IMG/VR virus record: IMGVR_UViG_3300027704_000015
Coordinates: 15,963-79,962 of that record
Length of the DNA: 64,000 nucleotides
Direction: 5' to 3' (one strand)
Source of the DNA: a virus
Shown: positions 38,467 through 45,646 of the stretch, piece after piece
Layout of the letters: each line of letters opens with the position of its first letter
Position numbering within the stretch: position 1 is the first letter of the stretch
Made by a program: the position numbers and the translations under genes
The notes under the pieces: model-generated
Seen by the model: the letters and a program-made list of their open reading frames with translations, nothing else
The model's database searches: none
Told to the model about the DNA's origin: nothing

Positions 38467-38535
38467 ATGATACAACTTATTACGATACAAAGATTTATGT
38501 TACCTAGAACTGCACACTGTAAAGGTGGATGTTAG
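38467..38535 (+). CDS. Candidate 22-aa peptide MIQLITIQRFMLPRTAHCKGGC
   Basis: AAGGGA RBS-like sequence; fills the gap before the next ATG (38538). Confidence 0.35.
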   Translation: MIQLITIQRFMLPRTAHCKGGC

Positions 38536-38537
38536 CT

Positions 38538-38783
38538 ATGGATAGCTATACTGATAATTACGATACATTTAGTGATGATGATGAATTACTAAACGCAGCT
38601 ATTAGTAATACATATGAATATTTAGTTAGTGAGCTAGAGATATCTGAACTTCCAGCTGGTACATGGATGCTTAAGCAACCAAGGCGAGTTGCAACTATAG
38701 ATCAGCTTATAGAGTACTTTACAGGAACAGAAGAGTATGAGAAGTGTGCTGAACTAGTAAAGATAAAACAAACAATAAATTGA
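38538..38783 (+). CDS. Protein with UVR-like motif
   Basis: LIEYFTGTEEYEKCAELVKIKQ. Confidence 0.65.
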   Translation: MDSYTDNYDTFSDDDELLNAAISNTYEYLVSELEISELPAGTWMLKQPRRVATIDQLIEYFTGTEEYEKCAELVKIKQTIN

Positions 38784-39063
38784 CCGCTAGTACTTTTATT
38801 AGCTGCTCAAATGGACGAGGGTTCGACTCCCTCCATCTCCACAACAATTATATGTGAAAACATATAATACAATAAATTACATATAAAGTATATGTAATTA
38901 CATATAATATGGGGATGACTTGGATATTGACATTGAGATAAGGATTTAAGGAAGGTCACGCATAACAGGCGAACATGTTGAAATGGCAATGGCGGCTTAA
39001 TAAAGTCCCCAGAACCGAACGGCGTTAACAGGGCAAGTCGTATAAGCCCGGTGGTGGTGGACC
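38781..39063 (+). ncRNA. ssrA: Circularly permuted (two-piece) tmRNA; tag (A)GEHVEMAMAA
   Basis: T-arm GAGGG-TTCGACT-CCCTC (38817-38833) and 3' acceptor strand CATCTCC-A (38834-38841) lie upstream of the 5' strand GGGGATG (38911-38917), giving G3:U70. D-loop-like ...TTGAC. ATAACA then resume codon GGC (38968) to TAATAA (39003). Confidence 0.9.
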
Positions 39064-39078
39064 TATAAGGTATAAATT

Positions 39079-39771
39079 ATGACAATGATGAGTAGACCAA
39101 TAATAAAGAAAAAGATTAAGCGTAACAATGTTGTGTATAATCTTGAGTTATGGAATACGATAGATGATGATTTTATACCAAATGTATCAGAGCCACCCCA
39201 ATTCCGAAAAGATTTCTTTAATGATGTAGCTATGGATGGTAAATGGCCTGACTCAACAGAGTATCAAGAGAGGTTCGATGATTGGTTTGATAATCTATCT
39301 AAAGACAAGCAAATTCAATATGCTAGAGCTATTGATGAGTCTAATAGGGTTATAATATTAATGGTGTGGGAGCAAGTTAATAAATTAGATAAGCATGAGT
39401 TGTTCAATAATAACATCAGGCAGTTTAGTATCTGGTTCTCAGGTTTGGATCCAGCTGATATTGACTTCTACATGACACGTATAATGTCTAAACGTCGTTT
39501 GATGCCTGCTGAGTTTAGAAGTGATAGCCCTGAGTTATTATCTGCTGAAGAGATAACTAACGCGTTACAAGGTGTATATGATAGTATAAATGATGATTTA
39601 ATTCGAGCAACAACTATTAACGGTCTACTGTGTATTAGCTGTACTGATGAATCAAGATTAGCTAAAGTAAAAAAGCATATGATAATGCATGGTAGTATAT
39701 TACGTGATTATCGCAAGAAAGAAAACATCAGCGGTAATATGATTTATACATATATATTTTCTAAACCGTAA
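39079..39771 (+). CDS. Hypothetical protein
   Basis: 230-aa ORF directly after the tmRNA; no SmpB motifs recognised. Confidence 0.65.
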   Translation: MTMMSRPIIKKKIKRNNVVYNLELWNTIDDDFIPNVSEPPQFRKDFFNDVAMDGKWPDSTEYQERFDDWFDNLSKDKQIQYARAIDESNRVIILMVWEQVNKLDKHELFNNNIRQFSIWFSGLDPADIDFYMTRIMSKRRLMPAEFRSDSPELLSAEEITNALQGVYDSINDDLIRATTINGLLCISCTDESRLAKVKKHMIMHGSILRDYRKKENISGNMIYTYIFSKP

Positions 39772-42285: not shown

Positions 42286-42516
42286 ATGAATAGAAAAGTA
42301 TGGAAGTATGAGGATGAATACTGGGTAATACATAGAAGTATACCTGAACATCAAATGTCACCAAAATCGTTAGGTTATAATTCTGATGATAAAAACAAAA
42401 TGGTACGAGTTTGGGTAGAGTATCTACGTGATAATTGCAATAATATCGAGAAGGTTTTTAGTAAAGACGGTGTATTCTTATTCTGTGAGCAAATTAAATC
42501 TGCAGAATTAGTATAA
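42286..42516 (+). CDS. Hypothetical protein
   Basis: 76-aa ORF. Confidence 0.55.
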   Translation: MNRKVWKYEDEYWVIHRSIPEHQMSPKSLGYNSDDKNKMVRVWVEYLRDNCNNIEKVFSKDGVFLFCEQIKSAELV

Positions 42517-42558
42517 AACAGTTGCTTTTACGATTTATTTTAATTATATTCTATAATT

Positions 42559-42670
<112 letters not shown>

Positions 42671-42683
42671 TAAGAGGAATAAT

Positions 42684-42857
42684 ATGAAATATAAAGAACA
42701 AGTACAGTCAAGAGCGGAAGCAATCGTTAATTTATTAGAAACGTTAGAGCGTGGACTTCAAGCTAACGCTATAAGTAAATCAGAAGCAGTTAAGTTGGTT
42801 GCTAAATTAAGACGTCTAATTACTGAGATAGATAACTTCGCTGACCTCGAGGGGTAA
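42684..42857 (+). CDS. Small helical protein (57 aa, not in track)
   Basis: GAGGA RBS; MKYKEQVQSRAEAIVNLLE... Confidence 0.6.
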   Translation: MKYKEQVQSRAEAIVNLLETLERGLQANAISKSEAVKLVAKLRRLITEIDNFADLEG

Positions 42858-42858
42858 A

Positions 42859-44190
42859 ATGCAGAAACACTTATTTCCAATTATAATTACGCTAAGTGCA
42901 CTTGCCGTTTCAGGTAGTGCTGCATTCTATTCTGTTTATGGATTAAGTAAGTTGTTTGCGGGAGCAAGCTTACAAGTTATGATTATGGCTGGTTCATTAG
43001 AGTTTGCAAAATTGGTTGTTGCATCTTTACTATACCAGTATTGGGACACAATAAATAAAGGTTTACGAGCATATCTATCTATAGCATGTCTTGTGTTAAT
43101 ACTAATAACATCAGGTGGTATATATGGATTCTTATCAGGCGCATATCAATCCACTGCTACTCAATCAGAGCTACTTGACAAATCCCTTATGATTCTAAAT
43201 CAAAAACAGATTAGATTTGAGGAGCAGAAAGAGGATCTTAAGATAGAAAAGCAGGGATTATCTAAATCAATATCAGATCTAAGAGTCGCTCTATCTAATC
43301 CAGCGCAAGTGCAGTACATAGATAAGGAATCAGGTACGTTAATTACAACATCATCATCTTCAGCAAGAAGAGCTCTTCAAGGTGAACTATCTACAGCTAC
43401 TAATAACAGAGATGTTATAAATTTAAAGATGGAAGCTGTAATGGATTCTATTAATAAAACAGATATGGCATTGCTAGATAAAGAGATATCTAATGAAGCT
43501 GAGAGTGAGCTAGGTCCTTTAAAATATTTAGCTGAAATAACTGGTAAGGATATGGGAGTTGTTGTTAATTGGTTCTTATTATTAATTATATTTGTATTTG
43601 ATCCTTTAGCTATAGCGTTAGTAGTAGCAGCTAATATGGCATTTGCACAAATAACTCCTAAAGTTACTATGTCTGTACCAGTCGGTAAAAAGTTTAACAC
43701 ACCCTACCCAGTACCTTTGAACATTGAGAACCCATCAAGTGAATTAAAAACTCGTGTTGCTAATAATCAAGCAAGATTAAAAGATCAAGAGTATAGTCAA
43801 GATAACTGGGATATTAAAGTGCATAGTTCAAGTTTAAATCCGAACAGTTTATCTAGTAGTATTAAGGTTGAGAGAAAGGATCTAGTAATGGATGATCTTG
43901 AGACGAATATATCTAAACCGGAAAAGGTTGAAATTGGATTAGATGCGTTGATCGATATACTGGAGGATGAAGAATTGCAACTACCAGAAAATTCTGTTAC
44001 TGAGACTGATATACCCTTACCAGTTGAAAAAAATATTCCAGCTGCTGAGCAATCAAGCGAGCACACACTATACCATGGTGATTCAAAGCAAAAATCATTA
44101 AGTACTAACGATAAACGTAGAAAGCGTGTTATCAAACGACCTAAACACAATCCAAACAAACCACATAACCCGAACCCTTATAAAGGATAA
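42859..44190 (+). CDS. Multi-TM coiled-coil membrane protein
   Basis: AFYSVYGL, LEFAKLV, GIYGFLS, ELGPLKYLA, IFVFDPLAIAL; a pattern recalled from large T4-like phages. Confidence 0.75.
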   Translation: MQKHLFPIIITLSALAVSGSAAFYSVYGLSKLFAGASLQVMIMAGSLEFAKLVVASLLYQYWDTINKGLRAYLSIACLVLILITSGGIYGFLSGAYQSTATQSELLDKSLMILNQKQIRFEEQKEDLKIEKQGLSKSISDLRVALSNPAQVQYIDKESGTLITTSSSSARRALQGELSTATNNRDVINLKMEAVMDSINKTDMALLDKEISNEAESELGPLKYLAEITGKDMGVVVNWFLLLIIFVFDPLAIALVVAANMAFAQITPKVTMSVPVGKKFNTPYPVPLNIENPSSELKTRVANNQARLKDQEYSQDNWDIKVHSSSLNPNSLSSSIKVERKDLVMDDLETNISKPEKVEIGLDALIDILEDEELQLPENSVTETDIPLPVEKNIPAAEQSSEHTLYHGDSKQKSLSTNDKRRKRVIKRPKHNPNKPHNPNPYKG

Positions 44191-44983: not shown

Positions 44984-45646
44984 ATGTCAAAGAATATATA
45001 CGGTAATTACGAGGAGCAAGAAGAAGATTTGAATAAAAACTCAAACGCATCTGACGAGGAAGTTTATTATGAAGATGAGCTTGAGAAAAAGCATCTCTAT
45101 AAAGAGATAGAATTTGCAGTAGATGTAGAAGATAGTATTATCTATATTATAGGTGAAATTGAAGATTTCGGTTTATATGATTTTATGGTTAGGTGTAGAG
45201 CTATATTGCGTAATCGTCAAGAGGGTGATGATTCACCAATTAATGTAGTTATTGACTCTGTAGGTGGTGATGTGTATGAGATGTTCGGTATAATCGATTA
45301 TATTGAAAGTCTGGAGAAAAACAGTAACATTAAAGTTAATACAATATGTAGAGGTAAAGCAATGAGTGCAGGTGCAATGATACTAGCCAGTGGTACAGGT
45401 AAGAGATATGCTAGCAAGAGGTCAACAATAATGATACATGAAGGTTCATCGATGCAAGCAGGTAAGTCATCAGATTTAAAAGCTGCACATAAATATAATT
45501 CACATCTAGAAGAAATGGCTAATGCATTATTAGGTGAGAAGACATCAAAAGATAAAAAATTCTGGTCTGAACAAACAAAAACTGACCTTTATTTATCCGC
45601 AAAAGATGCTCAAAAGTTGGGCGTTATAGACGGTATAATTAATTAA
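44984..45646 (+). CDS. clpP: ClpP-family protease with acidic N-terminal extension
   Basis: IDSVGGDV, GKAMSAG (Ser), IMIHE (His), TDLYLSA (Asp), LGVIDGI. Confidence 0.9.
   Translation: MSKNIYGNYEEQEEDLNKNSNASDEEVYYEDELEKKHLYKEIEFAVDVEDSIIYIIGEIEDFGLYDFMVRCRAILRNRQEGDDSPINVVIDSVGGDVYEMFGIIDYIESLEKNSNIKVNTICRGKAMSAGAMILASGTGKRYASKRSTIMIHEGSSMQAGKSSDLKAAHKYNSHLEEMANALLGEKTSKDKKFWSEQTKTDLYLSAKDAQKLGVIDGIIN

Follow-up and report, generated by a model that had tools for sequence, protein, structure and literature searches.

The locus considered here raises the question of whether a phage can encode a working transfer-messenger RNA (tmRNA) in two base-paired pieces and in circularly permuted order, and from which source such a gene could have come. 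It lies at 38781-39063 on the + strand of a 64,000-nt stretch of viral DNA (hereafter the window), which covers bases 15963-79962 of the 79,962-bp IMG/VR virus record IMGVR_UViG_3300027704_000015 and in which an initial annotation, made from the sequence alone, had proposed a phage-encoded, circularly permuted tmRNA gene. Gene prediction with ARAGORN, the Rfam model of permuted tmRNAs (RF04321) and covariation among relatives all support that proposal. The reading we favor, with a probability of about 0.82, is that the gene specifies a functional circularly permuted two-piece tmRNA belonging to a lineage of large, uncultured marine phages that most likely infect Bacteroidota.

Evidence for a permuted tmRNA gene

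In the 64-kb window, the sole gene called by ARAGORN was a permuted tmRNA (tmRNA*) spanning 38749-39091, whose tag, GEHVEMAMAA with two stops after it, is the one originally proposed; the program called no tRNA genes there. RF04321 (tmRNA_permuted) was the sole Rfam family above threshold in the window, scoring 55.7 bits compared to a gathering score of 47 at 38792-39000 and spanning the full model (1-213), while the standard, one-piece tmRNA model gave a truncated match of 33.7 bits that was confined to the 3' half. All of the elements listed in the initial annotation could be located within 38781-39063.

Comparison with relatives showed that the acceptor stem, the inter-piece helices and the tag frame have been kept. 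In 60 distinct homologues, 99.8% of the cells of the proposed pairs were paired, compared to 40-55% when the partners were slid, and changes on both sides were seen in 11 of 29 pairs; the observed covariation score was reached by 0 of 500 shuffles. From 14 sequences and with no guidance, RNAalifold predicted the acceptor stem, T-arm and two inter-piece helices. An H-type pseudoknot in the 3' domain could be formed in 62 of 62 relatives, compared to 3-8 of 62 after shuffling. Since the single-sequence fold of this domain was no better than that of shuffles (z = -0.48) and hence uninformative, the pseudoknot was judged by comparison between sequences, where covarying versions were found of both stem 1 (ACGGC/GUCGU, ACGGU/ACCGU and AGGCC/GGUCU) and stem 2 (GGGC/GCCC, GAAGC/GCUUC and GGGU/ACCC). 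Taken together, the 99.8% pairing, the shuffling result and the universal pseudoknot lie far above chance, and the observation is real.

The 30-nt tag frame contained 4 variable positions in the 60 distinct sequences, all of them third codon positions and 3 of them synonymous. The sole amino-acid change in the alignment, His to Gln, is coupled with the base at -1, and because the two change together, a small hairpin (UAACA/UGUUG) whose loop contains the resume codon is kept; one pair of this hairpin changes from AU to UA in 3 of the 60 sequences and also in two syntenic loci, L120 and L121, that are described below (L numbers denote the sequences used for comparison). This pattern of substitution indicates that the tag frame is under constraint at the level of the peptide. 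The parts of the gene, all on the + strand, are as follows.

38781..38841, +, acceptor piece: 3' half of the tRNA-like domain and 3' strands of the connecting helices (ARAGORN, RF04321, covariation)
38781..38785, +, 5' strand TGACC of the distal inter-piece helix, pairing with GGTCA at 38954-38958
38786..38803, +, candidate local hairpin GCUAGUA-CUUU-UAUUAGC within the acceptor piece (RNAalifold)
38806..38813, +, 3' strand CUCAAAUG of the proximal inter-piece helix (P2a), pairing with CAUUGAG at 38931-38937 with one bulged A
38817..38833, +, T-arm GAGGG-UUCGACU-CCCUC (ARAGORN, RF04321, covariation)
38834..38841, +, 3' strand of the acceptor stem (CAUCUCC) with the discriminator A (covariation)
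38842..38910, +, intervening segment (spacer) of 69 nt, presumably discarded; its two AT-rich hairpins both end in ATATAAT
38911..39063, +, coding piece, comprising the 5' acceptor strand, an analogue of the D-loop, helix strands, the tag frame and the 3' domain
38911..38917, +, 5' strand of the acceptor stem (GGGGAUG) (covariation)
38963..38980, +, small hairpin UAACA/UGUUG with the resume codon GGC in its loop (RNAalifold, covariation)
38968..39003, +, tag frame GGC...GCU, encoding GEHVEMAMAA, followed by the stops TAA TAA (ARAGORN)
38984..39017, +, helix-5-like hairpin between the end of the tag frame and a C-rich segment, with the stop codons in its loop (RNAalifold)
39019..39049, +, H-type pseudoknot: stem 1, 39019-39023/39037-39041; stem 2, 39031-39034/39046-39049

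The tRNA-like domain is built from both pieces. Its acceptor stem comprises 7 bp, as had been claimed, and was 100% paired in the 60 sequences, with the fifth pair occurring as CG, UA or GC; the second pair of the T-arm was seen as AU, UA, CG and GC. The alanine determinants are present as well, with G38913:U38838 corresponding to G3:U70 and the discriminator A38841 to A73, and the G3:U70 pair (U:G) was invariant in 60 of 60 sequences. The terminal CCA is not encoded, the discriminator being followed by CAA, and its absence, which the initial annotation had pointed out, extends to 62 of 64 unique relatives (encoded in 2 of 64).

Two helices join the pieces, and both of the pairings originally suggested, CTCAAATG/CATTGAG and TGACC (38781)/GGTCA (38954), are present and covarying. 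In the proximal helix (CUCAAAUG/CAUUGAG), 5 of 7 pairs vary on both sides and 99.8% of cells are paired. In the distal helix (UGACC/GGUCA), 99% of cells are paired (n=60), and the middle pair is CG in 28 sequences, UA in 26 and AU in 6. The candidate hairpin at 38786..38803 is paired in 98.6% of cells with one two-sided change only, which argues weakly for it. The 5' end given for the acceptor piece was taken from the first conserved helix, and its 3' end is the discriminator A38841.

Pseudoknot 1 (PK1) is normally present in tmRNA. In the window gene it is absent: only 9 nt lie between GGTCA (38954-38958) and GGC 38968, the PK1 stem of RF04321 is unmatched, and the place of PK1 is occupied by the small hairpin around the resume codon. 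The sequence ATAACA ahead of the resume codon GGC at 38968, the frame reading GEHVEMAMAA and the two stops were all found as described. The helix-5-like hairpin shows one-sided changes only. The mature RNA would total approximately 215 nt with a single pseudoknot; the earlier description of a minimised tmRNA therefore agrees with a gene that has no PK1, one downstream pseudoknot and no encoded CCA.

Spacer, processing and proposed action

The two hairpins claimed for the 69-nt spacer of the window gene were found, and among relatives the spacer takes one of several lengths (17-22 nt, the commonest, 57-91 nt or 155-165 nt) with no conservation of sequence; it is both dispensable and variable. 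In eight relatives, a complete tRNA gene lies inside the spacer (tRNA-Ala(UGC) in seven and tRNA-Glu in one), at the following positions.

L265:1441-1515, tRNA-Ala (UGC)
L291:904-978, tRNA-Ala (UGC)
L297:333-407, tRNA-Ala (UGC)
L316:6400-6474, tRNA-Ala (UGC)
L348:2477-2551, tRNA-Ala (UGC)
L350:746-820, tRNA-Ala (UGC)
L335:301-375, tRNA-Ala (UGC)
L296:8306-8378, tRNA-Glu (UUC)

These nested genes suggest that the spacer serves as a slot, in which the processing of the tRNA itself would free both tmRNA ends; they thus provide comparative evidence on how the two pieces may be released. The tmRNA gene sits within a run of co-oriented genes. The stop codon TGA (38781-38783) of the upstream 84-aa open reading frame (ORF; 38529-38783) falls inside the first tmRNA helix strand, TGACC, and the next ORF begins at 39079, a few bases past the 3' domain of the tmRNA. 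Being packed between coding genes in this way, the tmRNA has no space for a promoter or terminator of its own, and a scan for sigma-70-like promoters and for terminators around the gene found no promoter above chance and no terminator. The variable spacer, the nested tRNA genes and the lack of promoter and terminator signals argue for a single precursor, rather than separate transcripts, from which both pieces would be cut by tRNA-processing enzymes.

An additional feature of the spacer is the palindrome TATAT-N8-ATATAAT, which occurs in it twice (38849-38868 and 38889-38908) and twice more in the intergenic region 42516-42859 (42545-42564 and 42639-42658). With up to one mismatch permitted, 16 matches were counted compared to 5.2 expected, and relatives with short spacers are without the palindrome. 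It may be a regulatory element of the phage.

From the structure and conservation of the gene we infer how the RNA would be processed and charged, how it would depend on host SmpB, how tagging and proteolysis would follow, and what the phage might gain. The acceptor piece, spacer and coding piece would be transcribed as one precursor, with host RNase P cutting 5' of G38911 and a 3' endonuclease cutting after the discriminator A38841, and the unencoded CCA would be supplied by the host CCA-adding enzyme. The two pieces would then be held together by the acceptor stem and by the helices 38806-38813/38931-38937 and 38781-38785/38954-38958. Host alanyl-tRNA synthetase could charge the RNA by way of G3:U70 and A73, after which host SmpB and EF-Tu would bring the charged RNA to stalled ribosomes. 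Translation would resume at GGC 38968 and add (A)GEHVEMAMAA, a putative degron ending in Ala-Ala. A likely benefit to the phage is the recycling of ribosomes during host mRNA degradation or in the face of RNA-cleaving defences.

Distribution, host and origin

A scan of IMG/VR for the permuted order identified at least 118 contigs; among the matches listed, most carried AND...ALAA tags, and a separate group had tags starting with Gly, to which the window gene belongs. The tag-coding pattern of this Gly-start group was found in 25 viral contigs and 106 metagenome contigs, many of them from TARA Oceans, and in none of approximately 185,000 species-representative prokaryote genomes. Over 133 instances, the tag was GEHVEMAMAA in 109, GKTIEMKMAA in 14, GEQVEMAMAA in 7, GNNFEMKAAA in 2 and GNNYEMRAAA in 1, and the stops and the Ala-Ala C-terminus were retained throughout. 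ARAGORN missed two further, syntenic loci (L120:2036-2285 and L121:2754-3003), which contain all of the elements, encode the tag GAQVEMAMAA and share with L134 a compensatory change at -1/+9.

Genes of the GEHVEMAMAA type all reside in phages that share window genes at 25-97% amino-acid identity, which means that the gene has been retained across a deeply diverged phage lineage, although its genomic position is not constant. The GKTIEMKMAA type is found in L029 (IMGVR_UViG_3300025600_000008), a complete 48,484-bp genome with direct terminal repeats in which no genes in common with the window were detected; unrelated lineages of phages thus carry the Gly-start design. A blastn search with the region and two related tmRNAs against 50,697 GenBank phage records gave matches of T-arm length only, so that no cultured phage in that set has a close copy.

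The host is probably a member of the Bacteroidota. Nearly all ORFs of the window are on the + strand, and its gene content includes T4-type baseplate wedge proteins, a NodU-like carbamoyltransferase, Hsp20 and a PKD-like protein. One window protein has a type IX secretion system (T9SS) sorting domain, identified by Pfam CHU_C (44 bits; cut-off 27) and by TIGR04183 (24.2; cut-off 23), which resembles the C-termini of numerous large proteins in 78 of the 301 Bacteroidota genomes sampled. In a comparison of baseplate proteins, the cultured phages Microcystis phage Mel-JY01 (45% identity) and Flavobacterium phage immuto (39%) came closest, together with an uncultured 484-kb phage; neither Mel-JY01 nor immuto yielded a permuted tmRNA match. 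The T9SS domain and the relatedness to immuto make a Bacteroidota host likely. The initial annotation had likewise spoken of a Bacteroidota phage, and the T9SS domain, the occurrence of the same design in crAss-like phages, and the unencoded CCA and ACUGG-UUUGAC D-loop that the group has in common with the Bacteroidota one-piece genes agree with this, although it is from such features that we infer the host. SmpB was not found in the 80-kb record or in five related records, one of which is the 100%-complete 48-kb genome L029, and host SmpB is presumably used. Elsewhere in the window, the protein encoded at 44984-45646 obtained its best score with phage head-maturation protease families (phrog_94, 1.6e-32), and its product may be a prohead protease rather than a ClpP acting in proteostasis.

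In Bacteroidota cells, 102 one-piece tmRNA genes were recovered through the GENNYALAA coding pattern, and RF04321 had no match above cut-off in 151 sampled Bacteroidota genomes, in keeping with the earlier statement that the tmRNAs of this phylum are one-piece. Sub-threshold RF04321 matches in 21 of the 151 genomes were considered as possible cellular permuted genes, and the best four, on inspection, proved to be one-piece with ANYNYAMAA-type tags.

There are several potential explanations for the origin of the gene. The initial annotation had favored an independent event, that is, a fourth permutation starting from a captured one-piece Bacteroidota ssrA gene, with PK1, PK3 and PK4 lost and without common ancestry with the alphaproteobacterial, betaproteobacterial, cyanobacterial or AND-tag forms. 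To address this, 23 Gly-start genes were set beside 85 permuted phage genes of the AND type and 102 one-piece genes of Bacteroidota. The Gly-start group agrees with Bacteroidota, and differs from the AND type, in its D-loop (ACUGG-UUUGAC) and in resuming at GGC within an AUAAC-type context; CCA is encoded in 0 of 23 of its genes, whereas 82 of the 85 AND-type genes encode it. The stretch running from -25 to +15 relative to the resume codon is significantly Bacteroidota-like in the GKTI and GNNY subgroups (score 32-34 compared to 18-20 +/- 2-3 for shuffles) and bears no likeness to AND-type genes. Along the same stretch, L007:4261-4298 (GKTIEMKMAA) and the GENNYALAA tmRNA of L144, a metagenome-assembled genome of an uncultured Bacteroidetes, can be aligned over approximately 25 nt, ACAGCC(A)ATAAC-GGC-AAAACAATT, with a 1-nt gap directly after the resume codon, so that GKTI looks like GENNY shifted in frame by one base. 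That the same design is present in Bacteroidota-phage lineages as distant as Crassvirales also speaks for an origin of this kind.

The acceptor piece points in the other direction: its variable part in the GKTIEMKMAA and GNNFEMKAAA subgroups significantly resembles that of the AND-type genes L045 and L004 (score 29-36 compared to 18-19 +/- 2-3 for shuffles) and is not like that of Bacteroidota (16-17). The overall plan of the group, in which a predicted helix 5 and one pseudoknot are combined with a break immediately 5' of the P2 3' strand, equals that of AND-type genes without their PK1. Profiles of Bacteroidota one-piece and AND-type genes, searched against the group with nhmmer, aligned the universal tRNA-like core only, slightly better for the AND type. 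The variable regions of the window gene itself match neither set significantly, and the gene is tied to its sister subgroups chiefly by the tag module and the common architecture. Moreover, adaptation to the SmpB, proteases or CCA enzyme of the host, or recombination with host ssrA, could have given rise to Bacteroidota-like traits. Because the tag module is Bacteroidota-like while the acceptor piece is AND-type-like in the sister subgroups, the group looks mosaic or host-adapted, with a permuted phage scaffold and a Bacteroidota-type tag module. On present evidence, descent from other permuted tmRNAs of phages, or recombination with them, appears more likely than an independent permutation, which we regard as doubtful. 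The Bacteroidota style claimed for the tag holds for its Gly-Glu start, which is that of GENNYALAA, whereas the likeness in sequence is located in the resume and tag module of the sister subgroups. A broader version of the same idea, taking in the marine phage lineage, other marine contigs and gut crAss-like phages, is similarly tentative; it would make the Gly-start, PK1-less and CCA-less tmRNAs a virus-only fourth permuted lineage derived from Bacteroidota ssrA, independent of the alphaproteobacterial, betaproteobacterial and cyanobacterial ones, functioning without PK1 and using its spacer as a tRNA slot.

It is also conceivable, but improbable, that the RNA, though made and perhaps charged, acts mainly as a decoy or competitor that blocks host trans-translation or diverts tagged proteins from the adaptor and protease route of the host. 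Mycobacteriophage DS6A reportedly has a tmRNA-like RNA, devoid of a CDS, that inhibits the endogenous tmRNA in E. coli (cited in PMC11915505), and a missing PK1, a tag that ends in MAA where Bacteroidota have LAA, and the acidic or bulky middle of the tag (EHVEM) would suit such a role. A pure decoy would, however, have no need of the stops and the Ala-Ala terminus that are kept in 133 instances, nor does it account for four variable tag sites that are all third codon positions, three of them synonymous. Far less probable still is an artefact or relic: a one-piece gene that was assembled wrongly, a fragment of host ssrA of the attP type, or a false call by ARAGORN. Fragments from the 3' end of ssrA are common at phage attP sites, and false permuted calls by ARAGORN do exist, as in the tRNA array of phage phi4:1, where there is no Rfam support; in the present case, however, the gene has both halves, which covary, the Rfam score exceeds the curated cut-off, there are no tRNA genes in the window and the tag frame is conserved. 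Mis-assembly, which the initial annotation had itself named as a possible source of error, is excluded, since the same piece order recurs on more than 130 contigs that were assembled independently and come from many samples.

Against the interpretation as a functional two-piece tmRNA of a Bacteroidota phage, it is important to note several points. With PK1 absent and the resume codon placed in a small hairpin, activity cannot be presumed from the rules established for E. coli. The segment 39007-39016 can pair alternatively with the G-rich tail at 39050-39060, in competition with helix 5; this alternative outer stem of the 3' domain shows in the single-sequence fold, and covariation is indecisive between the two. 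The 3' end of the coding piece lies somewhere within 39060-39075, and the 5' end of the acceptor piece is similarly approximate. The closest baseplate relative (45% identity) is annotated as a Microcystis phage, and the estimated completeness of the IMG/VR record is 46%, so that a phage SmpB encoded elsewhere is possible.

Comparison with known tmRNAs

Two-piece tmRNAs have been described in phages before, so the novelty implied by the initial annotation does not extend to the permuted arrangement as such, and it is lessened further by the RefSeq crAss-like phages described below, which already have the Gly-start design. Buchholz et al. (2022) reported 53 unique two-piece tmRNAs among 18,146 phage genomes, 50 of them marine or aquatic, with carriers that include the OM43 phage Melnitz, pelagimyophages and Caulobacter phages (PMC9004378). 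The 2025 tmRNA database paper recognises alphaproteobacterial, betaproteobacterial and cyanobacterial permuted forms and contains 79 phage sequences (PMC11915505); the lineages of Alphaproteobacteria, of a betaproteobacterial group and of marine cyanobacteria correspond to RF01849, RF01850 and RF01851, since merged as RF04321 (PMC11915505). In our literature search, no paper describing a Gly-start, PK1-less and CCA-less permuted design was found. A "permuted tmRNA" listed for Cellulophaga phage phi4:1 (NC_021788.1, L129:2428-3089) in the supplement of PMC9004378 is most likely an ARAGORN false positive, as the call spans tRNA-Tyr, tRNA-Ser and tRNA-Asn within a tRNA array and the best RF04321 score in that genome is 15.6 bits.

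Like the three recognised cellular lineages, the window gene is circularly permuted and would form two base-paired pieces, and its tRNA-like domain scores above the RF04321 cut-off; the group to which it belongs differs from them in being virus-only, in leaving the PK1 stem of the model unmatched and in having a Bacteroidota-type tag and resume context. The marine myophage, AND-tag tmRNAs are likewise phage-borne and mostly aquatic, and they share the order of acceptor piece, spacer and coding piece, the G3:U70 pair, and one pseudoknot after the tag frame with, as predicted for the window gene, helix 5. They differ in an encoded CCA (82 of 85), a PK1 region of approximately 50 nt, a UUUCGAC D-loop, a GCA resume codon and AND...ALAA tags, whereas the window gene lacks PK1 and an encoded CCA, resumes at GGC and specifies the tag GEHVEMAMAA. 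Set against the 85 AND-tag genes and the RF04321 consensus, it thus has none of three features: an encoded CCA, PK1, and an Ala (GCA) resume codon with an AN-type tag. Compared to the 102 one-piece genes of Bacteroidota, the window gene has in common a Gly-Glu start encoded by GGC GAA, an AUAAC/UAAUU-type context, the ACUGG-UUUGAC D-loop and a CCA that is mostly unencoded. The Bacteroidota genes, however, contain PK1 to PK4, measure 360-400 nt and encode tags ending in YALAA, while the window gene is permuted, with one pseudoknot, approximately 215 nt and a tag ending in EMAMAA.

A parallel in design was found by following a weak blast match to the RefSeq crAss-like phages cr10_1, cr50_1 and cr60_1 (Crassvirales, Suoliviridae), whose genes labelled "transfer-messenger RNA, SsrA" are actually permuted and encode Gly-start tags.

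cr10_1, L370:646-1031, permuted tmRNA, tag GNNFVTDYTQLAVA
cr50_1, L371:296-791, permuted tmRNA, tag GNNFVTDYTAIGA
cr60_1, L372:559-1005, permuted tmRNA, tag GNTSYVMDYTRLAA

All three are called tmRNA* by ARAGORN, encode no CCA and leave no space for PK1; cr10_1 scores 49.6 bits with RF04321, and in cr60_1 GGC is preceded by AUAACU and the distal helix is UUGAC/GUCAA. They differ from the window gene in belonging to an unrelated phage order, in their gut habitat, in longer tags and in spacers of 99-214 nt, and similarity to the window gene outside the universal core is marginal. The spacers of cr10_1 and cr50_1 contain a T-arm-like remnant, GAGGTTCGACTCCTC.

These comparisons also indicate that annotation errs in both directions, since members of the group are labelled plain "tmRNA", L120 and L121 were missed, and one published call in a Bacteroidota phage is likely false. 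Relative to the systems known so far, the window gene and its relatives add a distinct minimal two-piece design, with a mature RNA of approximately 215 nt, a single pseudoknot, no PK1 and a CCA that would be added after transcription. The design may serve as a natural test of the minimum tmRNA structure that trans-translation requires, and it suggests that Bacteroidota phages routinely carry a host-tuned ribosome-rescue RNA, one that has a resume module like that of Bacteroidota and relies on host SmpB. The design has been kept throughout a diverged, widespread lineage of marine phages and is mirrored in the crAss-like phages of the gut.

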